Below the pieces are notes generated by a model. The model worked only from the letters and a program-made list of their open reading frames with translations, did no database searches and was not told the origin of the DNA. From Fistulifera solaris (Eukaryota), in NCBI GenBank assembly GCA_030295235.1, contig AP026125.1:1116001-1180000 (forward strand): 64,000 bases of DNA. The letters run 5' to 3'. The position numbers and the translations under genes were made by a program. Numbering within the stretch: the first letter of the stretch is position 1; every line of letters starts with the position of its first letter. Below, in pieces: positions 5,188 through 61,039 of this stretch.

Positions 5188-6398
5188 TGGCATTAATATC
5201 TTGTGTTCTCTCGAAGACAACGAGTTCAACTAAGAGGACCATAGGTTCCTTTCCGTCCTATCATTCGGATTGACCAGCAACGTACATTTCAAACAAAAGC
5301 GATTAATGGGTAAATTCTTGGTAGATGCAGGTTCGTCGGATATAGGGTGTATTATTGGTAAACGGCCATCGGGTATTGGTTCTCTCTGTTGCACTGAAAC
5401 CAATACGAACATAAAGTGAACGTTGGCGTCGGAGGGCCAAATGTCATGCTAAGTCATGCTGTCGCTTCAAATCAATCCGGCTTGAATATTGAACCGGACA
5501 AATACTTGCTACACCTCTAGTCAAGCGGCTCGACAGCTATCGTTCCTGTCGCACTCCGCTTTGCCCAAGTTCCAAACACGCCTCTTAGTTCTCAGTATCA
5601 AATCTTTTTGTCTTCCTTGATCCGACCCGTTTGTTGTAAGCTCGCCCAAACAATCCCGTAGCTTGTTGTTTTGAAAAGTTGACAGAGCGCGGCTCCTTCA
5701 ATTTGCAATGTGTTCCTGACACAAACGACAAGCACCAATTCTTGCGGGCGGTATTACTTGATCGATCCACAATAAACTCAGTTGTCGAGGACGATCACCT
5801 CTACGCAAATATCAGATGGTGAAATTGCAGGAATCTCCCAGGGAAGTCTAAAAGCTCGATGAAAGCTGATTAATACGACATGTCGACTTTCTTTCATGCG
5901 ATCATGGTCACTTTCACGGGTCTCTGTCGACTCCATTTGACGGCAAGAGTGTCAAATTTTGCAGCATTAAACAGTAGATTGTGCGCTTTTCGCCTCGTAT
6001 CCGCCGTCATTTCACAGTATCGAGGGAGACTGATGATATTCATGTAAAGAAATGCCATGAAATGAAAGTTTTTCCGTCCCAAAATCGACCCTTGCGGTCG
6101 AATGAAGGTAATGCAAAGAATGAGCCAATAATCATGGGCATCCCCCTTGCATTTTGGAGCAAAAACTCACGGATTGGCACACTAGGATCGTAAAGTAGGC
6201 ATTCTGACGATATAATCTATATAAGTAGTCGCGTGCTCGGAGCGGTACTTCCAGAATGCGACATGTCGGAGCGTATATGAAAAATGTTGCTCAGGACACA
6301 CGGACAGACTGGACCCTCTTTTAGACTCGTGACCAAACTGCAAGATCGTGACTCGTATTGTTTGTACTATCTTATCTATAGTCGACGTCAGCATGCAG
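5188..6398 (-). ncRNA. Copy A of an unclassified ~1.2 kb conserved structured non-coding element
   Basis: The reverse complement aligns collinearly by eye with 26699-27855, with many identical 10-25 nt blocks. Hairpins are conserved and there is no conserved long ORF. Confidence 0.6.
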
Positions 6399-6617
6399 TG
6401 CTTTTGTGAGGGAAACGACGTTAAAATTCTGCCTCGCCGTAGGCTCCACGTAGAAACTTGTACTGAGAGGCAGAATTTTAACGTCCTTTCCGGATGAGAC
6501 GCGACGATGCGGCGCGGCGCAAAGAGTCGATACAATGAACATTTATGCTCATTGGGTTTATGTACAGTTGACCCGAAGATCTATTCGTACGACATAGAGC
6601 TCTTATTGCGTTACTGG

Positions 6618-8622: not shown

Positions 8623-9109
8623 TGCGGCGAAAGCTTAGTTCGACCAAACAAATGAAACGCTGTGATACTATTGCAAGTAATAGCTTCTAATGTGCGAATC
8701 TCGGTGACCCGGCAACAATAATAAGGCAATAATACAAATGAGAATATTGTAAGAATGAGGCCCAAGTTCGCGTTTTGTGTTCGAAGAAAATGTGGCACGA
8801 GATCGACACGCGCGTGAAGCGTGCAAAAATGCGACGTTCGGTACCGTACACGACTCACTGAGAATGCCAGTCACGGCTGCCCAACAGAAAGTCTCAACTC
8901 ACTCTATAGAGCTCAATGTCTTCGGTAGTGTACTGTGGGATTGAAAGTTACTCCGTAGTATATAGGGAATTGAGTGACGGATGGACATACGATTATTCGT
9001 TTGGTCGCCGTTTCTTGCACGCTGCGAAAATAAACGCAGGTCATCGTCACATTCGCATTGATGTTGCTTTTCACGCGTTAATAATACTGTTGCATCTACT
9101 AGAGCTTTC

Positions 9110-9871
9110 ATGTTCTTTTCACCGGTCTCGTCAAGCTCTCCGGTCGAACTGACATTGGCCTCAAAAATTGCGGCTGTTTTGGTTGCCAGCATTTTATTGC
9201 ACGGCTTCTTGTTTCATGGCTCGGGGTGGAAATCACGTTTTTATCAAGTTCCTGGATCAAACTTACTTGCTGTGAAGGTCTTAATACTTACCGAGGCTTT
9301 GTGCATTGACTGCAAACAATTTGTAAACGGACAGCTCTCGGAAGTATACAATGCTTTGGGCCCGTCCGTCATGGATCTGCAAATTGTACCGTTTGGTAAC
9401 GCCAAGTTTGTCCACGTAGATGGTGCCGAACGGGGCGACAAACCGGTATTGCAATGTCAACACGGGGTTGCGGAATGCGATGGCAATATTTACGAGCAAT
9501 GCGTTGTCATGCAGCTCTACCCTTATCCGCAGCGGTACCTACCGTTCCTTCGTTGCCTTTATGTCGAATTACCTATGGGTCACAGCGATCAGCTACTGGA
9601 CAGAGATGTTATTGCAAATTGTTCGACAGCCTCAGATTTGAATTGGGAAGCAATAGCAGCCTGTCACGACGACGAGAAACAGGTGGCGCTACTTCAGAAA
9701 AGAGCAAAGTCACAGACTCCGAGCTATCACAAGGGTGTGCCTTGGGTCGAAGTGAATGGTCGGCATGTTGAAATAACGGACGATGGATCTTCCTTGCTCA
9801 GAGCTGTGTGTAGGGCTTTTATCTCCAATGGTGGCACTCATCCTTCCTGTTCATCGAGTCTTGTTGTCTAG
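9110..9871 (+). CDS. GILT (gamma-interferon-inducible lysosomal thiol reductase) family protein
   Basis: EALCIDC CxxC active site, PFGNA, CQHGxxEC signature and VPWV; hydrophobic N-terminus. Confidence 0.85.
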   Translation: MFFSPVSSSSPVELTLASKIAAVLVASILLHGFLFHGSGWKSRFYQVPGSNLLAVKVLILTEALCIDCKQFVNGQLSEVYNALGPSVMDLQIVPFGNAKFVHVDGAERGDKPVLQCQHGVAECDGNIYEQCVVMQLYPYPQRYLPFLRCLYVELPMGHSDQLLDRDVIANCSTASDLNWEAIAACHDDEKQVALLQKRAKSQTPSYHKGVPWVEVNGRHVEITDDGSSLLRAVCRAFISNGGTHPSCSSSLVV

Positions 9872-9958: not shown

Positions 9959-10754
9959 TTATAGTTGAGATTCTTCGCCTTCGGCGTGGCAAATGGATAG
10001 TTTTTCGGTCGGCTCGTTTGCGGTTCGAGGGGTAGAGAACTGCGCACAAGCGGGATGAGAGCCACCCTTTTTGATATAAGCAGCACAAACTGCTTCAAGA
10101 AAAGAGTCGTCACTTTCCATTTCGGCGTGGGCACCTTCGATCTCCACCCAAGGAACGTACTGATGATCCTTGGATGTCAATGCATATGCGATTTGTTGCA
10201 GTGCTGTCGCTCTAGTCGGATCGTCATGACAAGCGGCAATCGCATTCCAGTCCAGCGCTGATTTCTTGGCACACGACGCATAGATGCTTCGGTCGATGAG
10301 CTCGTCACTGTATGCCATCGGTAGCTCATCGTAAAGACAATGGATAAACGGAAGATAGCGCTGCGGGTAGGGATAAAGATGCAAGGATACGCACTGTTCG
10401 AAGGAATTTGCATCGCATTCCGCCTCACCGTGCTGACATTCTAGCACAGTTTCGTTAGGGTCGTCTTCACTGGCGACATAGCGCGCGTTGCCGAAGGGAA
10501 TGACCTGTAGTTCGATGACCGTGGCTCCGAGAAGCTCGTATGCGGGTGCCAGCGATTTTTGGACAAATTCTTTACATCCAGAACACAATGCTTCATCAAG
10601 AACCTTGACTTTCACCGGTGCAGCAGCCCGCACTGGCACGTGTTCTTCTTGGTGCTTTCGGAGCATGTTGTCTGCCGACACGAGCGTATCTTGGAAGGGA
10701 AGAGAATGCCGCAATGAACGGGAACGATTTCGTAAGGGCGCGCATCGTAGGCAT
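9959..10754 (-). CDS. GILT family protein (paralogue, convergent)
   Basis: EALCSGC, PFGNA, CQHGEAEC and YVPWV. A signal-peptide ATG at 10754/10745 is out of frame by a probable indel. Confidence 0.85.
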
Positions 10755-10884
10755 GTTGATATTTTATATCAGGTTCTCGTGAAACTAAGCTCGTTTGTGT
10801 TATTCTCCCTCCTTGAAAATAAAAGGACAAATAAGATACACGGCCGAACAAAAAGGCGTCAACAAAAAAAGAATAATCATTGCC

Positions 10885-11012
10885 ACTCACCCAGGTTTTC
10901 TGGGAGTGTGAAAATACTACTGGTCCAGATTTTCTGGACCACGTGTAAACACCAATCACCCAGATTTCCTGGGAACGTGAGAATTACGACTGGTCCAGAT
11001 TTTCTGGACCAC
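10885..11012. repeat. Two ~70-bp units with palindromic TGGTCCAGATTTTCTGGACCA and CCCAGRTTTYCTGGG cores
   Basis: A direct repeat is visible at 10887/10956 and 10920/10990. The core matches the arrays at 33 kb, 34.5 kb and 55 kb. Confidence 0.75.
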
Positions 11013-11113
11013 TTGTACTGCAAATTTATCGCTTATTGGGGAAAGTGATTTCACGACGCGGCAGAAGAAAAATAATAATAGTCTTTCACTAAGAACAATG
11101 AATGAGCTCATGA

Positions 11114-20288: not shown

Positions 20289-20417
20289 TGATTTGTATTG
20301 GAAGTTGCTGTAATGTATTGCCTGGTTAGAAGGGTAATGTGATGAGAAAATGGAAATGCCGATGCGGTTGTGTGTTTTTTGCGCTTGACAATTGTTGGCT
20401 GGCGCTAGTCAAATGTC

Positions 20418-21160
20418 TTGAAATTTCACTATGAAACGGAGTGTTGGTTTACGCCAGCCACGACTGGATTGTGCAGTAGTCATGAACCGAACAACAAAGG
20501 GATTCCGTTTGGCGTCTCTCGCATCCGTCCATTGTCATTCAACTGCGAATATATTATTTTTTAAAAATAACGGATAAAATAAAGTCGCAACAATGATGAT
20601 TCTTAACTACTTGTTAGGAGTTTCTTTTTTTTTAAAAAATAACGTCGAAATAATCCGAGGAACGACACCTTGAATTTCCATTATGAAAAGGAGTGTTGGT
20701 TTACGCCAGCCAAGACTGGATTGTACAGTAGTCATGAACCGAACAACAAAGGGATTCCGTTTGGCGTCTCTCGCATCTCGCATCCGTCCATTGTCATTCA
20801 ACTGCCAATATATCATTTTTTAATAGCGGATAAAATAAAGTCGCAACAATGATGATTCTGAACTACTTGTGAGGAGTTTCTTTTGTTAAAAAACGTCGAA
20901 ATAATCCGAGGAACGACACCTTGAATTTCCACTATAAAACGGAGTGTTAGTTTACGCCAGCCAAGACTGGATTGTACAGTAGTCATGAACCGAACAACAA
21001 AGGGATTCCGTTTGGCGTCTCTCGCATCTCGCATCCGTCCATTGTCATTCAACTGCCAATATATCATTTTTTAATAGCGGATAAAATAAAGTCGCAACAA
21101 TGATGATTCTGAACTACTTGTTAAGAGTTTTCTTTTATTTTTACGTCTAAAATTATCCTC
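20418..21160. repeat. Tandem repeat, ~251-bp unit, ~3 copies
   Basis: GTGTT(G/A)GTTTACGCCAGCCA recurs at 20441, 20693 and 20944; the units are nearly identical. Confidence 0.95.
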
Positions 21161-23101: not shown

Positions 23102-24144
23102 TGTTATTTAATAGTTAATAAAGTCTCAAGTACGAGAGTAATTGATGCTATTTCTACGCTTTTTTGTTTTCCGAAGATTGCATCATGGTCGTCGCAGCCG
23201 CGCAGCGACCGAAGACGACGATGCTGTTCGAAAGCCGAGGATGACAGTGAGCCCAAGAAAACTTTACTATAGCTCAAAGTGTTGGTTTACGGGTCTCGTG
23301 ACAGGATTTCGGTCTTGTATTTCAACGCGCTGCGACGTGTTTTCTCTGAGATTTCTTACCGGTATGACACTTAAGTGCGGTACAGTAGCGCAACGTGTAG
23401 ACGACTTTTCGCCCGACTGAATTTAGTCATGAGGAGGGCACTTTTACGTTTTATACTGTAAGGGCTGGTTACTTTTTTTGAATGTTCCCTCGTTCAAATA
23501 GTACAAATTTGTACGTAAGTACATAAGGCACCTATAGTCGAAATTATCGTTGATTGATTAACCTCCACCGCGATAAAAACACGACGACCATGGCGAAAGG
23601 AATTCATGAGGCTGTAACTTCGTTCAGGGACCTGCAAAATTGTGGGAATTGGGCCATCTAATAGCTATTAGCTATAGAAGGCTTATTGTGCGATATCCAC
23701 AATTTTGACGCTTCTGTTGCTGAGATACTCGCTTTCGAGTTGATTTTCTACGGTGAAATAGCACGGGCAGAATCAAATCACGCCTTTTCTCCGCAACCCG
23801 ATCGCCTCTGATGAAAATTAAACATCTCTTGGAACCGCCTCTCCTTAATTATATAATAAAAGTAAAAGAATATCAATCGAGCTTTATTTAATCGATCGGT
23901 GCCCCACCATGTTTAGCCTGGATTTGTGCGGCATTTTTCCATGGTGAGATTTTCGTTCCGACGGTTAGTGTAGCATAAAGTGTACTTTCACGGTGCTATC
24001 GCGACAGGGCGTCCCTGCGCGTAACCAGCCCTTACGCTCGTCACATCCATTCGTCGCAAAAAATTTATCGTCCATTCGCCGTTTATAGCCATCTCTATAA
24101 TAACAAGTCGATTTTTTCCTAATGTTATTTATCCGCAAAGAGTC

Positions 24145-24558
24145 ATGAACCACTCTCAATTGATACGAAGTATGGTGCAGGCGCAGGATGAGCCCGTTCG
24201 CCCCGCACCCACTCGCTCGAACAAGAAAGGAAGTCAAGCCACCAAAAGCAACAATAGCGTGACCCGCGAAGATATCTTGCGGTGTCATGTCAAATCGGTT
24301 TTACTAAGGGACCGTGTATTGAGCAATACGAACAAGAATGAACTTTCCTCCTTGTTCCGTTCGGAGAAAAAGGCACAACGGCTACCGATTCGTGACGCCG
24401 CACGGTTGCCAGAACCCACCTTCAATAAAACGAAGCATGAACGAGTTAAAAAGGAAGTGGCGTTACGAAAATTGACAAAGAAATTGCAACAGAAAGCGAA
24501 AGACGAGAAAAAGCAATTGAAAAAGTCAGTGAAAAGGCAGACGCTCTCGAAGCGGTAA
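24145..24558 (+). CDS. Small basic hypothetical protein
   Basis: 137-aa ATG-started ORF with a Lys-rich C-terminus and an EPTFNK motif. Confidence 0.55.
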   Translation: MNHSQLIRSMVQAQDEPVRPAPTRSNKKGSQATKSNNSVTREDILRCHVKSVLLRDRVLSNTNKNELSSLFRSEKKAQRLPIRDAARLPEPTFNKTKHERVKKEVALRKLTKKLQQKAKDEKKQLKKSVKRQTLSKR

Positions 24559-24610
24559 ATTATCGGTTTGCTGATTAAATCATAATTGTGTAATTATTAG
24601 TTAATAAGGT

Positions 24611-26157
24611 TTAGAGATACCGATTGAGGACAGGTAGCTTGCTTAGATGGTATGACAGCGGCCAGAGGATTGCGTTGCTAACAGAAAGTACCACGAAAAA
24701 GCCGATCCACAAGTGCACTGTCCCATCTCCGGGACCCGACAAGTGACTGGAAGACGGAATAAAGATACCAAAGACAACAGGAGCAAACTTGATCGTTTCA
24801 GGATACAGCACATCGTAGACCTTGTAAAACACGGAAGTGCAGATCTGTATCACCAGCGGGTGCAGTAGATACACGGTATAGGCTCCTCCGGCCAAATACG
24901 ACCAGTCTTGGTTCACGTATTCTTGAAAGAATTGCAAATACGCAACAGATATATCGACACATAGCATCCCCGCGGCTAAAAAAGTAGGCGAGGTGTTCGA
25001 CTGGACTCTCTCTGATGAAATGTAGATACATGACCACGACTCCTTCCAAACAAACCATCACACGTAGTTTCCACGGAGCGATATCCATTTGTTCGGTAAT
25101 CGTTCGTTCGTGTGATATCCATCCATATTCACCAGCCACAGTACCAGCGGTGAATAGCACAATGTCGCTGAACAGTGTTCCCGGGGACGCAATCGGCATG
25201 GCATAAAAGTACGAAATGTTCAGCACCCGAGAAACGACGAATTGCGCAAAGCCGCACAGACCCAATCCCCACATCCACCGCTTCCGTGTGCTAAGAAAAG
25301 GAACAGAACTTGTACTTCCGCTCGTATCCTCTTTGTCATTCACAAGGAGTATGTAAATCCATTCAAAGAACAAAAGCCAGTAGATGAACCAAGTGGCGCC
25401 GAGGGACGGGAAATACACCAAATCTGAATTTGCAGTCCACTGGGCGATACAAAAGCAGAGAGGATTCAAAAACACCAACGAAACCCATGCGGGAACCAGC
25501 AGTCGAGTGATACGGCCTTGTATGAAGGCATGACCTCCTTTGCGCTTGTAGCTTGATGCCGTGAAATAGCCGGAAATGAAGAAGAAGAGACACATGAAAT
25601 AGGATTGGTTGAATATCATGAGCTTGCGTATGGCAAACTTGAATGGATTGTCATAATCACCAATGACCATCATCCATGAAAGGTTACCACAGCAACCAAA
25701 CGCATCCGCCGTGTGGTTGAGCACCACCAAAAAAGTGAGAAAGACTTTGAGGTTGTCGAGATAATGCATACGTTTCCGAACAGGTTCTGAATCTTTTTTG
25801 TTGGTTGTTTCCAGTAAATTGGCAGCTGAGCTTTCGATGTCTTCTTCGGTCATGTCCTCTTTGGACACTTTTCGCCTCACAAGGCGCTTTCTTTCCGAAT
25901 AGTCCTTCGCGGACTCATTTTGCAAGCCACCCCATAAGTAAGAAGGGCGCCGTGCGTAGAGTACCGAAACGAAAATCGTGAAAAGGTAGGCGGTAAGAAA
26001 TTTTGCCACGCCTTTATCTTCCAAGAGATATTGCCCGAAGAGTGCACAGACGAAAGCTATGGCCAGATAAGCTTTGAGAGAAATCTTTTGTCGATTCGCG
26101 TTCGTAGCTTGATCATGATATCTATCGACTAATGACAGCTGGCGGCTCTACTTGCAT
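24611..26157 (-). CDS. Acyltransferase-3 (OpgC/OafA-like) multi-pass membrane protein
   Basis: YLDNLKVFLTFLVVLNH, FMCLFFFISGYF, WFIYWLL and YTVYLLHPLV. Two ORFs are joined by removing one base at 24978-24983. The start is uncertain. Confidence 0.85.
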
Positions 26158-26698
26158 GAAAGAATTGTTTCTTGGTAAAGCGTCGCTGTTGCTTGTCGGT
26201 TGCCTGTTGTCGACTATCTACCTGGTAATGATGTTGAGTTGAAATGAAAGGTTACAAGTAGGTTGGTTCGGTTTGGCATTGGCGAGGATAAACAACCAGA
26301 ACTATAACTTGGACGATAAATTCTGCCTCTAGTACAAGCTTCTACGTAAAGTCTACGACGAGGCTGAATTTAAACGCTGTTTCCCGTAATAAGCGAGGAA
26401 AGATGCAATGCTTTGAACGTCTACGCGTATATCACGTAGGAGTCTGGTAGGAAATTTATCGATGTGCGCCGTCGAAGAGTCGAAAGGCCGTCATCGAAAA
26501 TCGAAAAGGCGACGACGTCCACAGCTGCCAACGCGGTGACTGGCCATGGCCATGGATGAGACTCGCGGTCTCGGAAGTGGTCATTATGGAGTACAGTATA
26601 ATGAATGCGTGCAAATGTAACATAAACAGATTTGCTTGTGCGAATAAAGGCGAAGGGAAATGGGAAATACTCTAGTACCAGTAATAATTATAGAAAAA

Positions 26699-27855
26699 GC
26701 TGACGTCGACTATAACGAAGATAGTATGAAAATTATGAGTCACGGTCTCTCATTTTGGTCACGAGTCTGAAAGAGGGTCCAGTCTGTCCATGCGTCCTCA
26801 AAGACATTTTCGATACGCGCTCCGACATGTCGCATTCAAGAAGTACCGCTCCGAGCACGAGACTACTTACTTGAGCTAGACTCTCTTGAAATGTACTTTA
26901 CAAAGCTATTGTAGCAAACCGTGAAGTTTTGCTTCAAAATGCAAGGGGATTGCCCATGATTTTTGCCCATTCTTTTGCATCAACTAGACTACATTCGACC
27001 GCAATGGTCGATTTCGGGACAAATTACTTTTCATTTCATGGCGTTTCTTTGATGAATACTATCACTTATCCTCAATAATATGGTACTACGGCGGGACTGC
27101 TGCGAAAGGCGTTCATTTTTCTATTTTTATTGCTCTATTTGACACTTTTATTGTCAGTACGATCGAGACCCGTGAAAGTGACCAAGATCGCATAAAACAA
27201 AGTCGGTATGCATCATCAAACAAGTTTCATTTTCACCATTCAATGCTTGCGTACTGGTGGCCGTCCTCGGCAATAATGTTTATTTTGGATAGATTAAATA
27301 CCATCCGCAAGAATGGTGCTTTTCGTTTGTGCCTGCCAGAACACCCTCAAGATGGAAGGAGACGCACTATGGTAATCAAAATAATCGACAAGTAAATGGA
27401 TTGGCAAGGCGAGCTTACAACAAACGGGTCGGGTCAACGAAGACGGAAGGATTTGATACGGAGACTCTAGAAGGAGTGGATCGAACACGGGCGAAGCGGG
27501 GTGCAACAGGCATGGTAGCCATGGAGTCCGCTTGGAAGAAAGGTGCAGCAAGTATTTCTCCTGGTAAGGTATTCAAGCCGGTTTGATTTGAAGTGACGGC
27601 ATGACTTTTGGCCCTCCGACATCAAATCAGGCTCACTTTATGTTCGCATTGCTTGGTCTTTATCCAACTTAGAACAAATCCAGTTACCCCTACACCTATA
27701 CCAGGTATCCGACGAACTTGCAATTACCAAGGGTATACCCGATAATGACCTTGGTATGAAACATACGCGGCTGATATATCCGATTGAAAGGACGGAAGTG
27801 TTACGATCCATTGGGTAAATTCGTTGTTTCGAGAGAACACAAGAGACTAATGCCA
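26699..27855 (+). ncRNA. Copy B of an unclassified ~1.15 kb conserved structured non-coding element
   Basis: Collinear with the reverse complement of 5188-6398, and its first ~310 nt with 58168-58484. It has conserved helices with G-U pairs on this strand. Confidence 0.6.
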
Positions 27856-28607
27856 GAACTCAGACGACCTCGATCAATCATTGAGAAAGCACAAAGCTGG
27901 TCGTTTCCAACTGATTTGAGATCTTTAAGCATACACAAACATTCGTTTGCTGCAAAAACTGCCCAGAGCCTCTCCGGCAATACCAACTCTTGTCCAACAT
28001 TGACCGTTTTGTCTACGTCGGACTGTTTTGCGGTTGCCGCATTTTTGGGTTTGCTTGACTCCAATGGTATCTCCACTTTTCAACATGTTAGTTAACAATT
28101 CTGAGATGCTTTTGAATATTGAAACAAAAATTTGTTGTCAGTTGCAATGGTTCGAAACCTACGCTTAGGCCTGGTAAGAAATTCAGCGACGAAGGGGAAT
28201 CAGTATCAACAGCCCTACTTGTAGTGGTAGAATGTTCTACTATTTGCAAGAAACCTTCTGATCATCTATCTAGCGGATCATAATCGACCTCCAATTGACA
28301 CGAAGCACAAGGAAAGGAAACTCGTAACGATTTGGAGGTCAGCTCCATCGACTTTAAAATTGTATAACCTCTAGTTCCTGTTAAAAGTGAAGTTATTAAA
28401 GCGTAAGCGACGGAAATGTTCTTCGATGATGAACGTGACTGTCTGATTGGCAAAGAAATTCTGGTGAGAGCTGGAGTATTTGACCCTGTGTGGCCCTTTG
28501 AAAGCCCATCCACTAGGCACGAGCGTACGCGGGCAGAAGCAATTCCTCAAAAGCTATTGTCGAAGTAGGGATCTAAACAAATGCGTAGCCTAAGGTCTGC
28601 TTTGAAC

Positions 28608-31068
28608 CTAAGCTCGAACGAGCGTACGTATGGCCCTAGCGCCTCGAATTTCAAGCACTTCTACGGCCACCATCTGAGCAACAGACTGAAGCTCTTCTAA
28701 CAAAATTCCCGCCTCGGATTGTATTTCATCTCTCCTCAAAAAGGAAGACACTTCACCCAGTACCTCCATGATTGCCTCAATTCTTCCAACGCCTCCTCCC
28801 GAGCGCTGCGACATCGCGTCATTCAGCGTATCGATCATAATACGCATCTCTTCCATCCGCCTTGCATTTATGGGGCCATTACTGCCAGGAAGGAGGGGGA
28901 ACAGTCCACGAGAAACTTTGAAAAGGTTAGCTTCGCCCATACTGGCAATGCCGTCAATTGTTTCTGCAAGCTCGTGAACCAAGGGCTTTTTGAGAAATAG
29001 ACCAGTCCTGCTTGTCAAAAACTTAGCGAAAAGACGGATGGTCAGCGTCGACGATGATTCACTCTCTGACGAATCGTCTTGCTTCGACGGATTGTATTTT
29101 TTGGATGCCTTTTGTGCTAGTTTAAGAAAGTCGCGCAAGCGCTCCCAGTCGATTTCTTCACCTTTTCCATTAAGCGTTAGCAGGCGAATGAGCAGTTTTT
29201 GCAGAGCCTCCGGTGTCTCTCCCTCTTCGTCAGAAAGGAGCTGGCGCAAAACATATGGATAAGCGCCACGAACTAAGCGAAAATTTTTGTCTACTGACAA
29301 CGCGACACCTTCCAGAATGGTCAAACTTCGGATGATCACTGTCAAAAGGGTGGAGTCGTGAAGCGGACCACGTTTTCGCGACTAATGGCGTCAAGTTCAG
29401 CCTGCAACCGCGAGAAGCTGACATCGGATGCTTTTCCTGTCCCGCCTGTCGCGTTCTTCAGAGCTTTACCTAGACGAGGAACGAGCTGATCGAGTTGGGT
29501 CGTATCTTGTAGAAAGCCGAGCTTTATTGGGTTTCAGAAACGTCAGGGGAGACGCTTTCCTTTTGCACACAAAAGCTGACTGCACATCCGTACACTACTC
29601 ACCTTCAGCAAGTTTTCGGTGACCAGAGAAATATCCTTATTTTGAAGACCAATTACTAGTCCGAAAAGACCATATCTAAATTCTTCATCAATGTCGCTCA
29701 TCATTCCAAAATCTATCAAGGCCAGCTTATTGTCGGGTGTCTTTAATAAGTTTCCTCTGTGGGGGTCTGAGTGAAACAGTCCCGTCGTCATGAGCTGATC
29801 AACAGAACACCTCAACCCAATACTAACCATGTTAAGACCGTCATCTCCCAGCCATGGCCCCTTTTCGCCGTCGATCCATTCCATTACAAGTACACGTTTG
29901 CGAGTTAATGGCGTACACGGAGCTGGGACGCGAATATCCTCCCAGTCCCCGTATAAGTCCCGAAATCGCTCACAGTTGTTGGCTTCTCTAACATAATCTA
30001 GCTCGCCGAATAATTGCATTCCAAAAGCATCCGCAACTTTCGGTAAGTCGCCGCCTCGTACTTTGTCAAGCCACATTGCTGTTCTGCGAAGAAGATACAT
30101 GTCCAGAGAAGCGGATTGTTCGACATCCGGCCTTTGCACCTTGATCGCCACAACTTTACCTCCCCAGCGAGCTGCTTCCTCTTTTCCAATAGCTGCTTCA
30201 AGCTGTGGTCCCCTCCGTATTCTAGCTTTGTACACTTGTCCAATGGAAGCGGATGCAACTGCCTTGTAATCATTGTAAAACTCAAACAACGACAGAATAT
30301 CGTCCGTTTCGACTAGTTTCTTCAGTTGATTGGATCCATATGAAATGGATTTGCTGGTATCCTTCCAGCTCTTCTTTGTTACCTCCAAACGACGTCGAAG
30401 GTCGCCTAATTCGCGGCGCATAATTTTCATCGCCTCAATATCCGAAAAGGCACCCACTGCATCCACCAACTTCCCCAACTCCTCCGCCCAATACACATTC
30501 CGGATAATGTCGGGTCGCAAGCTCAGCGCTTGACCTGATTTTACAAGAGCGACACTTCGAGATTGCACCAAATGATTGCGAAGTTGTTCTCCTCGGCGTT
30601 TTTGTATTCTTACATCGTCCTGTCTTCCCATGCTTTTGTCCATCAAAAGTTGCAAATACCATCCTGTTTCGAAAATCCACGGAAAATGAGGGAGAATGAA
30701 TCAACACGTGTATAACTTCGTTCACTTCATTGCTTACCTAGCAATGGGAATGCCAATGAGTTGAGTCGCCAGCCAACTTGTAGTGGCCGCCGATCGTAAT
30801 GCTCTAATATTGCGTTGGCATCATACCCTACAACTGGCATCGGCTTTGTCTTTTGTCGACTCCTCTTTCGTCGTACGGTCGTAATGTCGGTGTTACTGTT
30901 GCTGCCTTGATGATGATGATGCACATCCCACGTTCTCGAAACAGGTTCCCCATTCTTGGTCATAGAAAGTCTCGTCGTTTGCGAGGACACCGGCAGAATC
31001 GGAGCAAACGAGGTTGCTGCCGGCAAAAAGCAAATGATCTTGAGTATCGATAACATCCTTTGGGGCAT
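28608..31068 (-). CDS. ABC1/UbiB atypical kinase, plastid-targeted
   Basis: Presequence ATS-FAP; ASASIGQVYKA, VAIKVQRP, ELDYVREANN, FHSDPHRGN and IDFGMM; introns at ~30737-30665 and ~29601-29523. Confidence 0.9.
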
Positions 31069-31389
31069 TCGTTTGCTGTATTCTAGCGTGTTTTTCCTCT
31101 TGTTTATGCGACAGCTGTTTGGTGTCAAAGAACTGCCATCTTGTTTTGTATTCACCGAAAAACGAGGAACAAAAGTTCAAAGCAATAGATTTTTTGCTGA
31201 CGGAGGACAGAACATAGTACGTGGTCGGCACTTTGAATGTGACTATTGAAGTACATGCGTGACACAAGTGACTTGGAAGAGTCACGAACTTCCGGTCATC
31301 AGTAGGTGACGTCATGTTTCTCTCCCATTTTTCGCAACGACGCGGTTTTGTTTGTTGGCAATAATAAGATCGACAACTATTATTATGCC

Positions 31390-31905
31390 ATGAACCAGCT
31401 TAAAATCATATTGCTTGCTATTGTATGCTCTCCAAGAATTCTAGGATGGACTCATTCGCAACAGCGGCCTTTCCTGCGCCTTCACAGCACGAGGTTGCGT
31501 GACAAAGCTCATTCTCAAATTGATTTGCAATCTGATACAGAGCGATTTGGGCGTGGAGAGATGCACCTGTCCGCGCTCTTGGAAGAGAAAGATATAGTCG
31601 TCTTTCAATCAGGATCGTGGTCTGTGGATGGAGTCTTGGTAGGGGATGGGCCCGTCAAATATGAATATTGCATGGTGGAGTCCCTGCAAGTTGTTTGGAC
31701 GCACAATTGTGAACACGGAGTTGTTAGAGGCTATTCCGTATTTCCTGGAAAGGATGGTATTTTTCAGGTAGATTCTACCTGGGATCCTATCGAATTTGGA
31801 CCGGAACAGTTGCTTGCACGTCTTCCCGTGAGCTGGGTCAATGAAACGACTTGTAAGCTGTGTGTTCCCTGGAAAGACCTCTCCCAAGAACTTCAGGACT
31901 TGTAA
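31390..31905 (+). CDS. Hypothetical protein with signal peptide
   Basis: MNQLKIILLAIVC N-terminus and a conserved-looking core (WSVDGVLVG, VVWTHNCEHG, EFGPEQLLAR). Confidence 0.65.
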   Translation: MNQLKIILLAIVCSPRILGWTHSQQRPFLRLHSTRLRDKAHSQIDLQSDTERFGRGEMHLSALLEEKDIVVFQSGSWSVDGVLVGDGPVKYEYCMVESLQVVWTHNCEHGVVRGYSVFPGKDGIFQVDSTWDPIEFGPEQLLARLPVSWVNETTCKLCVPWKDLSQELQDL

Positions 31906-32939: not shown

Positions 32940-33150
32940 TTCCGTGAAATGTGGTATTTTACGTATCCAGAAAATCTGGGGTGTGCTATTTTGACTTATC
33001 CAGAAAATCTGGGACCTCTTCAGAAAATCTGGACGGGTTTGCGTGCGGTGTTCGATCACGAGGTGAAGTCTTTATTATTTACTCTTCACGTAGACTACTC
33101 AGAAAATATTGAAAAGTGGTATTTTCAAGCGTCCGGAAAATCTGGCTATG
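32940..33150. repeat. Short degenerate array of TCCAGAAAATCTGG units
   Basis: The motif occurs at ~32967, 33000, 33020, 33099 and 33132. Confidence 0.65.
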
Positions 33151-34399: not shown

Positions 34400-35265
34400 C
34401 GACGCGTAAACGTTCCAATTTCTGGAGACAGGGTTGTGGATCCTACCGAAATGCTTTGCATGTTCCCGAAGTTCTGGACACGGTGTTCTCGTTCATAACG
34501 AAAGAAAGTGCAGATTCTCGAAATTCTGGAATTGCAATTTTCTGGTAATACAGAAATTCTGTGGTGGTCCAGAAATTCTGGACCAGTTTTTTCATCCAAC
34601 CAAAATGCTGTAAACGTTCCTGAAACTCTGGACACGGTGTTTTGGGATTATAACGTTATGTTGTGCGCGTTTCAGAACTTCCGGACACGGTGTTTTGGAT
34701 CATAACGAAAGAAAGTGCAGATTCTCGAAATTCTGGAATTGCAATTTTCTGGTAATACAGAAATTCTGTGGTGGTCCAGAAATTCTGGACCAGTTTTTTC
34801 ATCCAACCAAAATGCTGTAAACGTTCCTGAAACTCTGGACACGGTGTTTTGGGATTATAACGTTATGTTGTGCGCGTTTCAGAACTTCCGGACACGGTGT
34901 TTTGGATCATAACGAAAGAAAGTGCAGATTCTCGAAATTCTGGAATTGCAATTTTCTGGTAATACAGAAATTCTGTGGTGGTCCAGAAATTCTGGACCAG
35001 CTTTTTTCATCCAACCAAAATGCTGTAAACGTTCCTGAAACTCTGGACACGGTGTTTTTGAATCCTACCGAAATGTTGTGCGCGTTCCAGAACTTCTGGA
35101 CATGGTGTTTTGGATCATAACGAACGAAAGTGCGCTTTCCAGAAATTCTGGAATTGCAATTTTCTGATCATACAGAAATTCTGTGGTGGTCCAGAAATTC
35201 TGGACCAATTTTTGACCCCATACTGAAATTCTGTGGTGTTCCAGAAATTCTGGACCCGTTTTTTC
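34400..35265. repeat. Tandem satellite, 207-bp unit, ~4 copies, rich in CCAGAAATTCTGG palindromes
   Basis: Units start at 34508, 34715 and 34922; the first two are apparently identical. A degenerate unit follows at ~35130. Confidence 0.95.
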
Positions 35266-54900: not shown

Positions 54901-55069
54901 TGTGAATTGCATCTCTTTTAATCAAAAGGATAAACAGCTACTGCAGTGTTGATGATGATTCTTTGTAGAAGAAACGCTTGAAGCGGGCTGTTGTCGACAC
55001 GAAAAAGAAAAAGCTGTCACACGCGCGACGAGCCGAAAAATATTCTCATCTTCGACCGCATGCGGTGTT

Positions 55070-55410
55070 TCCACGTTCCCAGAAAATGTGGGGGCGTGGC
55101 ATTTGACGTCTCCAGAAAATGCGGCCGCGTGATAGTGTCACGCGTCCAGAAAATGTGGGGGCGTGGCATTTGACGTCTCTAGAAAATGTGGGAACGTGAT
55201 GTTTTCACGTTTCCAGAAAATGTGGGGGCGTGGTAGTTTCACGTGTCCAGAAAATGAGGGAACGTGATGTTTTCACGTCTCCAGAAAATGTGGGCGAGTG
55301 GTGGGTACAGCATGGTATTTGACGTCTTGTCCAGATAATGTGGGCGCGTGGTAATTTCACGTTTCCAGAAAATGTGGGTGAGTGCTATTTTCACTTGTCC
55401 AGAAAATACA
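55070..55410. repeat. Minisatellite, ~32-33-bp unit (TCCAGAAAATGTGGG...), ~10 copies
   Basis: Repeated CCAGAAAATG(T/C)GG with alternating TTTGACGT / TTTCACG variants. Confidence 0.9.
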
Positions 55411-58081: not shown

Positions 58082-58167
58082 GGTTGTAGCTTTCTCTTTA
58101 ATAATTTAACAAGCTCTTTCTTGAATAAGTTTGCTCGTCAAGCTAAAAAGCACGGCCTTTTATCGCT

Positions 58168-58484
58168 CAAAGTCGACCATTTGCGGTCGAATGAGTTGTT
58201 GCAAAAGAATGGGCGAAAATCATGGGCAACCCCCTCGCAATAATTCACGGATTTCTACAGTAGCATCGTAATGTAGGCTTATATACAGTCTAGTTCGTTT
58301 AAGTAGTCTCGTGCTCGGAGCGGTACTTGTCTAATGCGACATGTCGGAGCGTGTATGGAAAATCTTGCAAAGGACGCACGGACAGACTGGACCCTCTTTC
58401 AGACTCGTGACCAAAGGGGAGACCGTGACTGGTAATTATTATACTACCTTCTCCATAGTCGACGTCAGCATGCAGAGCTTTTTG
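58168..58484 (-). ncRNA. Copy C (5' ~310 nt only) of the conserved structured element
   Basis: Shares GCTGACGTCGACTA, TTTGGTCACGAGTCT, GAGGGTCCAGTCTGTCC, GCTCCGACATGTCGCATT, AAGTACCGCTCCGAGCACG, TGCCCATGATT and the TCGACC/GGTCGA hairpin with copies A and B. Confidence 0.6.
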
Positions 58485-58673
58485 CACAGCAGAAGAAAAT
58501 AAATAATGACGACGGTGATGCGCGTTGTGAATGTGCTGCGGTGGTGGACTCCTCGATAATAAAGGAGACATTCTCAAGTATATGCGAGCAGCAATTAACA
58601 TCGATATCGTTCATTTAATGAAGAAATAGTTTTTCGTTGGGCGTTAACACGCTGTTGGTGTATCAGTCAAACG

Positions 58674-59935: not shown

Positions 59936-61039
59936 CCCTTATAAGAACTCGTGTGTTTATGTACTTGTGATGACAAGACGCCCCCTCGTTTCCTTTAAAA
60001 ATCAACGAGCTTGCACCTCCCGCATCGTGCATTCACTCGCTCGAAATCCAAAATTTCTTTCAAACAAATCCTGCTTAAACAACGGTACTCACGCCGCGAA
60101 AACTTTCAGTGAAAGTTGTCTTGACTATTCTTGAAAAGTATGCACTCAATTCTGGTACCGTACTCAGTTTCGGCTTAACTCCGAAATGGAAAGCCATGAC
60201 ACGTGAAACGTGAAGATGGCAGATGGCATGCATTCTGCAGTCAGACTCGGAATGCGAGATGCGAGACAGAGAAATCTCTCCCTAAGAGTTGACTCCTGAA
60301 GCGGCATGCAATCTTTGTCCTTGTGTTCTGCGTCCTGCCTCCTGATCCTAAGACGATAGCTATGGTGCCAGAAGCTAACCCCAGCTCCAGCTCTCAAGTC
60401 TCAAGTCGCGAATTACTTGTAAGGAATTTATGAGTTTTCGTCTTTATCCGCTTTTTGGATGTCCATTGTACATTCTGCGTCGTAGCTACCTGCCGGTGTC
60501 TCTAAAGTCTGGAGTCTGGAGTCTGGAGTCCGGCATACGAAACACTTTTTTTGGCTGTTCTGTTGTTCACTATAGTATTCACTTTCACCCGCTCGCTGCT
60601 CACGACCTCACGACTCACGAGCCACCTGACACCGAACGCCAAACGTTGCTACACCTACGACGCAGAATGTACAATGGACATCCAAAAAGCGGATAAAGAC
60701 GAAAACTGTCATAAATTCCTTATTAAGCATGCCATCTGGAAAGGACGTTAATAAAATTCTGCCTATGGCTAAAAACTAAAGCGAAAGTGTCATACAGTAT
60801 ACATTACTTCTATAACTATTTTAATTTTAAAAATAAAGTGGAGCGGCCAATGGAGCCAAACGCCAAACCCCGGGTAGCGAGAAGCGAATACAAAGTAATT
60901 ATGCCTTGATCCTTGATGGATTATTCTGAGCAGCATTCATGTTGTCTAGACTGTTTAGATCGAGGACTCAACTCATTTTTTTCAGATCCTTTTGGGTGAC
61001 ACTCAGATAACCAACAACAAATCTTGTGTTTTCCCAGCC

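Follow-up and report, generated by a model that had tools for sequence, protein, structure and literature searches.

A multi-copy non-coding element with a putative promoter-like head in the genome of Fistulifera solaris

An intergenic stretch of about 1.15 kb in the genome of Fistulifera solaris (GenBank assembly GCA_030295235.1) recurs in inverted orientation some distance away on the same contig. The window analysed here comprises 64,000 nucleotides (contig AP026125.1, positions 1,116,001 to 1,180,000 of the forward strand). A preliminary description, made from the letters of the sequence, had read the stretch as a large RNA-like element with covarying helices. This raises the question of what is conserved between the copies: an RNA fold, a reading frame, the ends of a mobile element, or short stretches of nucleotides as such. 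The answer that we tentatively favour, while giving it slightly less than an even chance, is that of a non-coding interspersed repeat of no assigned class, in which a promoter-like head precedes a non-coding body that is transcribed in part, and which is conserved as primary sequence. Within this answer, promoter activity, mobility and the nature of what the conserved blocks bind are what we infer.

Copies of the element and their block-wise conservation

The main copy (B) was first described as collinear with the reverse complement of 5188-6398 (copy A), and this is borne out by blastn, which aligns B 26699-27855 with the reverse complement of A 5188-6392 (71.5% identity, 1233 columns, E 4e-170) along a diagonal traced by six inverted repeat pairs in a repeat search of the window. 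The third copy (C) that had been reported does exist, but its likeness is confined to the first ~320 nt of the element (58170-58469 aligned): C has 79.8% identity with B over 317 (blastn) and 78.2% with A, and beyond the first ~320 nt common to A and B it passes into unrelated sequence. The copies are therefore described below as a head, common to all three, and a body, common to A and B (Table 1). They are unequal in length (0.33 kb for C vs 1.15-1.2 kb for A and B) and have one sharp outer boundary in common. A profile search with A and B finds three places in the window, namely A, B and C, the next matches having E >=0.45. The three heads are roughly equidistant (pairwise identity 0.79-0.84), the bodies of A and B show 72.5% identity without gaps, and 16 indel events, mostly not multiples of three, separate A from B. 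All three copies lie within 53 kb, in unrelated intergenic contexts, with both orientations represented. The GC content of the element is 0.435-0.46 vs 0.464 for the window, and its CpG observed/expected ratio is 1.09-1.15 vs 1.13.

At the outer edge, the word GCTGACGTCGACTAT is found in A, B and C alike. Upstream of the GCTGACGTCGAC word, A and C have ~15 nt in common that B lacks, B having a 9-nt gap there. At the other end, the A-B homology stops at ...TAATGCCA (27855), just past the hairpin with a GAGA loop at 27824-27842. Between hairpins 1 and 2 of the head, B carries 5 extra nt (26983-26988) that are missing from A, from C and from the haplotype seen in one of the sequencing runs (X2, see below); the difference is therefore an indel polymorphism in a spacer.

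Table 1. Features of the element and of its surroundings, in window coordinates.
Feature	Position	Strand or orientation	Basis and remarks
Copy A, long form	5188..6405	-	inverted pairs, blastn, alignment, nhmmer
Copy B, long form (head + body)	26694..27855	+	blastn vs A, A/B alignment, nhmmer
Copy C, short form (head only)	58158..58487	-	blastn, nhmmer
Head module of B, common to A, B and C	26694..27015	+	alignment; read depth
Body of B, common to A and B only	27016..27855	+	alignment; approximately single-copy depth
Outer edge word GCTGACGTCGACTATA(A/G)	26699..26715		overlapping palindromes GACGTC and GTCGAC, TATA-like word; invariant in the three copies except for the last bases
Hairpin 1, 12-bp G-U rich stem, with the only compensatory pair of the element	26939..26980	+	folding, pair counts; alifold z -3.55 in window 26931-27050
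Hairpin 2, TCGACC / GGTCGA, then TTT(T)	26995..27011		stem invariant (palindromic), loop variable
Only part of the element in RNA-run contigs	27275..27530		X3 27298-27530, X4 27275-27509, exact matches; contigs carry no strand
Sole AATAAA kept in both A and B (both strands considered)	27279..27284	-	low-coordinate ends of the RNA contigs 4-23 nt away
Longest invariant block, 25 nt	27408..27432		A/B alignment
3' hairpin with GAGA loop	27824..27842	+	by eye; 3+4 bp, bulge in B, 1x1 mismatch in A
Neighbour of A: CCCH zinc-finger/NUFIP1-like gene	first in-frame ATG 6507	divergent	102 nt from outer edge; start by eye
Neighbour of B: Acyl_transf_3 gene	RNA contigs reach 26228	divergent	Pfam, RNA contigs
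Neighbour of C: RWD/Prp3_C-like gene	ATG 58674	divergent	187 nt from outer edge; start by eye
Gene downstream of C	ATG 58081	same strand as C	inner edge of C 77 nt upstream; start by eye

Relatives of the element were not found in the metagenome, viral and prokaryote collections scanned. The metagenome scan with a 19-nt invariant block returned three loci of 19-27 nt each, which have no extended similarity and were set aside as chance matches. The viral contigs gave two chance loci for one block and none for two others, and the prokaryote genome contigs gave no match for two blocks. In the literature on diatom non-autonomous elements and non-coding repeats, a search too narrow to call the family unpublished found no description of it.

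Conservation between the copies comes in blocks. The eight invariant blocks that had been listed are all identical in A and B, and the first three recur in C. The alternation of such blocks with variable spacers, also noted earlier, exceeds what a uniform model gives: over 1130 ungapped columns (74.2% identity), A and B have 11 identical runs of at least 15 nt where 3.24 are expected, a count that none of 5000 column shuffles equals. With gaps scored as mismatches, there are still 8 runs vs 1.5 expected (0/5000 shuffles). In the three-way alignment of the heads (321 columns), 220 columns are invariant, and 5 runs are at least 12 nt long vs 0.98 expected (3/5000 shuffles). One conserved block, at 26823, contains a 10-bp palindrome, and the pentamer TCCGA is conserved five times vs 0.39 expected, an excess that is marginal once the 1024 pentamers are corrected for. 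These data support a multi-copy non-coding family under non-uniform constraint. The constraint acts on the nucleotides: a single frame stays open in the heads of A, B and C alike, and in it the conserved codons vary at none of their three positions, while changes in the variable codons are mostly non-synonymous (read from the alignment).

Copy number, neighbouring genes and transcription

Contigs of four sequencing runs were aligned on 23500-31500. Two of them, X1 (organism A) and X2 (a wetland metagenome), cover this region evenly and were therefore treated as DNA. The two others, X3 and X4, cover 13 and 9 of 30 bins, mostly genes; a spliced 74-nt joint in X3 (30662>30737, with GT..AG ends on the minus strand) shows that these runs contain RNA.

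In the DNA runs, the summed depth of the bin 26704-26970, in the head, is 253 (X1) and 214 (X2) vs ~21 and ~12 alongside, that is ~12 and ~18 times the flank, or about 10-18x overall; these sums include partly aligned contigs, possibly from two haplotypes, and the copy count is to be taken as an order of magnitude. The excess spans only ~230 nt, less than the whole head or unit, and the long contigs of both runs break at 26766 and restart at 26936. The remainder of B stands at flank depth, inside one 1689-nt contig that continues into the flank. It follows from this profile that the core of the head has many copies in the genome, roughly ten or more, and the body only few (A, B and at least one more). 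In both X1 and X2, the 42-nt stretch 27400-27441 around the 25-nt block also occurs in contigs whose flanks are different (loose ends at either limit), and hence it has at least one further genomic copy. Together with a joint 26983>27398 in one X2 contig, the loose ends point to further variant copies.

Both junctions of B with its flanks are spanned by contigs of X1 and of X2, and B therefore occupies the same locus in both DNA sources; no insertion polymorphism of B was seen between these two. Between an X2 contig (26936-28633) and the window there are 17 letter differences; of the 15 listed, one is in the element (27097) and 14 are in 27859-28550, the first of the latter lying 4 nt past the end of the A-B homology. 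Compared over 920 nt in the element and 775 nt outside, the difference in density has a Fisher p of 2.4e-4, or 2.6e-3 with the two unlisted differences assigned to the element. The density in B (1 per 920) is similar to that in four coding contigs (5 per 1824, p 0.67). This low polymorphism suggests constraint on B as a whole, in a single contig comparison whose outcome could also be due to the local genealogy or to the assembler popping bubbles.

The same alignments gave two observations outside the element. At 24978, 26085, 26504 and 28041, every run covering the place disagrees with the window by a single-base indel; these four are probably small errors of the window sequence or strain differences. 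A second multi-copy stretch is found at 23542-24035, with a depth of 63-88 in X1 and X2 vs ~21 and ~12 nearby, loose ends at 23542 and 24035, and no Rfam match. It includes the deepest contig of X3 in 23500-31500 (23575-23868, depth 23.7, 7 differences).

In all three copies, the gene next to the outer edge of the head is divergent, with its 5' end towards the element, and the 14-mer at this edge has four sites in the window at <=2 mismatches (the three copies and one 2-mismatch site) vs 0.29 expected. In C, a further gene starts downstream of the head; its model, drawn by eye from the sequence, has a short exon, an intron (GT 58032, AG ending 57960) and a long ORF in frame, for which tblastn found nothing in A or B. 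At the far end of A and B, the neighbouring gene is convergent, with its 3' end towards the element. The window as a whole is gene-dense, 18 of its 37 ORFs of at least 170 aa having ordinary Pfam families. From the position of the head, and from the resemblance of its motifs to promoter motifs, we infer that it is a promoter-type cassette.

Other repeated intergenic sequences lie in the window. Four tandem arrays (10883-11017, 32950-33013, 34437-35263 and 55066-55407, with periods of 70, 33, 52/207/415 and 34/67) are organised about a common palindromic word, TCCAGAAA(A/T)TCTGGA, the core of which resembles a heat-shock-element half-site pair; they may constitute a single family of regulatory arrays. 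Another intergenic tandem array, at 20417-21136, has a 251-nt unit in 2.9 copies with 92% matches. Two convergent paralogous ORFs of 269 aa each, at 9062-9868 (+) and 9962-10768 (-), have a GILT thiol-reductase domain.

As for the body, contigs of 233 nt (X3) and 235 nt (X4), 256 nt combined, lie inside B in both RNA runs of one study. Their depth (3.6 in X3, 4.1 in X4) compares with 4-13 at the neighbouring acyltransferase gene. They are confined to the body, the head being without any, and the uncovered parts of the element are no evidence of silence. The discrete transcript of ~1.1 kb envisaged in the preliminary description was not seen: the contigs, which yield neither strand nor transcript ends, cover 27275-27530 only. 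Close to their low-coordinate ends stands the conserved antisense AATAAA (27279-27284), which, as a candidate poly(A) signal, is a lead only. If it is used, then the RNA of the body would not be driven by the head. For two diatoms, a published study describes no dominant AAUAAA signal (PMC6413133).

From these elements the following scheme can be proposed. The head (~0.32 kb, B 26694-27015) would be a portable promoter-type cassette spread by copying at the DNA level, either by transposition (class unassigned) or by local duplication. The body (~0.85 kb, B 27016-27855) would be a non-coding transcribed region. As to the invariant blocks of 12-25 nt, they would be primary-sequence sites for proteins or nucleic acids rather than strands of a large RNA fold. 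The reading as a repeat is favoured by the three copies in unrelated intergenic contexts and in both orientations, with one sharp outer boundary in common; against it stand the lack of any transposon hallmark and of insertion polymorphism of B between X1 and X2. The occurrence of three copies in 53 kb argues for local duplication as much as for transposition. Either of the alternatives offered in the preliminary description, a ncRNA gene family or a non-autonomous element, may still hold.

A stronger version, which we consider unlikely, would make of these sequences functional non-coding transcription units that form a family specific to the lineage: a promoter or leader, portable and bidirectional, reused before protein-coding genes, would be followed by a ~1-kb ncRNA whose 15-25-nt blocks would be trans-acting recognition sites under purifying selection, both in old paralogues and within the species. 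About as doubtful is a non-mobile family of functional lncRNA genes, in which the head would be the gene's own promoter, the transcript would measure ~0.8-1.1 kb, copies would arise by local duplication and short motifs would be under selection. The RNA contigs inside B in both RNA runs, the blocky conservation between old paralogues, and the three copies inside 53 kb are all in line with such genes. So are the placement of A and B, which stand gene-like, head-to-head and tail-to-tail with their neighbours, a CpG ratio near that of the window, and the coding-like invariance of B in the one population comparison. However, C is a head without a body, placed in front of a protein-coding gene, and the copy number of the head is far above that of the body; moreover, just 256 nt are represented in RNA, in strandless contigs, which leave the head and the remainder of the body uncovered.

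Signatures of mobile elements, structured RNAs and proteins

A reading of the element as mobile calls for an examination of its ends. The absence of TIRs, TSDs and a poly(A) tail, as noted from the outset, stands up to closer examination. The best TIR alignments score 12-14 vs shuffle means of 13.8-14.4. Terminal direct repeats score at the shuffle mean, and internal direct repeats were not found. By eye, no TSD is seen at the three copies, where ~30% divergence could have erased one, nor any poly(A) or A-rich tail. The combination of TIR and TSD that marks TIR DNA transposons and MITEs was thus not found. No transposase or reverse transcriptase was detected in the 37 large ORFs of the window (18 with a family, none TE-related) or in the ORFs of the element. 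A Helitron was rejected: no TC...CTRR is present at the homology limits in either orientation (by eye), and hairpin 2 is not followed by CTRR. Elsewhere in the window, 60433-60485 and 60655-60707 form an inverted repeat, 53 nt long and perfect, with its arms 169 nt apart.

With these results, the preferred non-coding repeat has to be weighed against a decaying retroelement on the opposite strand. Either the head would be the common 3' end of non-LTR-like copies, C, A and B being 5'-truncated or short and non-autonomous, or A and B would be solo LTRs. We regard this as improbable, somewhat more so than the lncRNA genes discussed above. Copies that share one end and differ at the other, with ~10-18x depth at the shared end and ~1x over the rest, give the profile of 5' truncation if the element is read antisense, and antisense is also a possible orientation of the RNA (AATAAA). 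But A and B have their far end in common, a coincidence that independent truncation would not produce. No poly(A) or simple-repeat tail is present at the shared end (...GCTTTT), where a TSD was not seen either, and of features of SINEs or non-LTR elements neither a tRNA-like head nor a 7SL or 5S match nor an A-rich tail was found. For solo LTRs, the limits of the A-B homology can be read as TG (TGACG...) and CA (...TAATGCCA), but the likeness of A and C extends ~15 nt past the TG, which is therefore not the true edge, and the copies have no internal part in which a PBS could lie. Internal direct repeats and a reverse transcriptase or other domain are lacking in the element, and no reverse transcriptase was found in the window.

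According to the preliminary description, the element would be a ~1.15-kb structured ncRNA or an RNA-mobilised element, with helices kept by covariation. This now appears very improbable. Of 52 pairs in the seven helices that had been listed, 36 are invariant, 7 show one-sided changes, 1 a two-sided change and 8 are disrupted in a copy; the covariation score, 0.090 vs 0.070 +/- 0.012 after shuffling, is matched by 95 of 500 shuffles. The apparent covarying helices are mostly invariant or one-sided positions, and the single compensatory pair does not sustain the claim of covariation. Nor does the consensus fold of the whole A/B alignment bear out selection on a large RNA structure: RNAalifold gives -153.7 vs -149.2 +/- 8.0 for column-shuffled alignments in the sense orientation (z -0.57), and z -0.26 in antisense (25 shuffles each). 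Neither a stable consensus fold nor compensatory changes of the kind expected of a large structured ncRNA were found, in tests that rest on 2-3 sequences and have limited power.

The only fold signal is at the end of the head, where two hairpins stand out (26939-27011). Two of the 28 sense windows of 120 nt have z <=-2 (26891-27010 and 26931-27050, the latter the lowest), leaving 26 above this value, and two of 28 do so in antisense; with 260-nt windows, it is one of 16 per strand. All such sense windows, of both sizes, are within 26886-27143. The 12 pairs of hairpin 1 are kept in A, B and C; among the changes in them, one is compensatory and three are one-sided but compatible. That its G-U pairs work on one strand only, as had been proposed, holds for A and B (z -2.34 and -1.92 in sense vs -0.42 and -0.23 in antisense) but not for C, in which sense has no advantage (-1.32 vs -1.40). 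For hairpin 2, the loops GCAAG, GCAAT and GCAAAT that had been read in the copies are confirmed.

Known RNA classes were also considered. Rfam 15 gave no match at gathering thresholds in the whole window, and a permissive search (E up to 10) on A and B returned five matches only, with E 3.4-9.9 and 12-19 bits. No tRNA-like gene was found in the element. A C/D snoRNA cluster was rejected (sense: no conserved C-like box and one conserved CUGA; antisense: one C-like box and no CUGA), as was a telomerase RNA, the element being multi-copy and having no telomere-template 7-mer. A Pol III gene was discarded in view of runs of four or more T inside the head on both strands (by eye). The short span of the RNA contigs also speaks against a large structured RNA. 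The element should not be passed onward as a new class of structured RNA, and the main value of the analysis is at present a negative one.

Coding potential was assessed in the same copies. No ORF is common to A and B over its full length, as first stated, and none of the 14 ORFs of the element of at least 60 aa reaches the Pfam cut-off (best E-value 0.064). The earlier remark that no third-position pattern is present holds roughly: A/B mismatches by phase are 113, 99 and 81, a bias with p 0.03 uncorrected whose phase matches no open frame. A 97-aa frame over the best-conserved, RNA-covered part has one match (E 4.8e-6) in 1.84 billion protein representatives, a 1034-aa tandem-repeat bacterial protein in which the score sums the same weak ~35-aa match over several repeats; this relative was judged spurious, a repeat artefact. 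Shared frame, third-position bias and homologous proteins, the marks of a protein-coding gene or pseudogene, were not found. A decayed protein-coding gene or captured gene fragment is hardly credible: several frames do stay open over 70-97 codons at the same place in A and B, and the mismatches have their slight phase bias, but the frames are broken by the indel events, amino-acid identity where both are open is about that given by neutral DNA at 65-70% identity (by eye), and the protein searches yielded the repeat artefact only.

Comparison with known systems

If the head is indeed a reusable promoter cassette, it would provide a gene-dense protist genome with a compact regulatory part of natural origin, and would exemplify the rewiring of neighbouring genes by repeats. 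Should the body be a conserved lncRNA in several copies, candidate binding sites would lie in its invariant blocks.

With large structured RNAs (RNase P/MRP, telomerase RNA, group I/II introns, SRP RNA), the element shares a size of ~1 kb, conserved blocks with variable spacers and a few local hairpins. Unlike them, it is multi-copy and has no Rfam match, no global fold signal and no telomere-template 7-mer.

LincRNAs have been reported in diatoms. Like intergenic lncRNA genes, the element is non-coding, intergenic and partly covered by RNA, and has no conserved fold. It differs from them in being multi-copy, in the invariant blocks of 15-25 nt that its old paralogues keep, and in a head that is also found upstream of a protein-coding gene.

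Transposon-derived or duplicated promoter cassettes (exapted repeat promoters) are taken here as a general concept and not as a specific family. The head resembles them in being short and multi-copy, in its TATA-like word and palindromic sites, and in its distance of 77-190 nt from start codons; in C, a gene follows it directly. In A and B, unlike such cassettes, it is followed by non-coding sequence and by no gene, and it is a putative promoter.

Finally, the element can be compared with the unclassified ('Unknown') interspersed repeats and non-autonomous TEs of de novo libraries. It departs from them in that B looks constrained in one population comparison, and in having no TIR, TSD, LTR, poly(A) or end made of a hairpin plus terminal tetranucleotide, and no autonomous partner in sight. 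Nevertheless, as in such repeats, its copies are multiple, non-coding and intergenic, occur in both orientations, are of unequal length with one end in common, and include mosaic variants.
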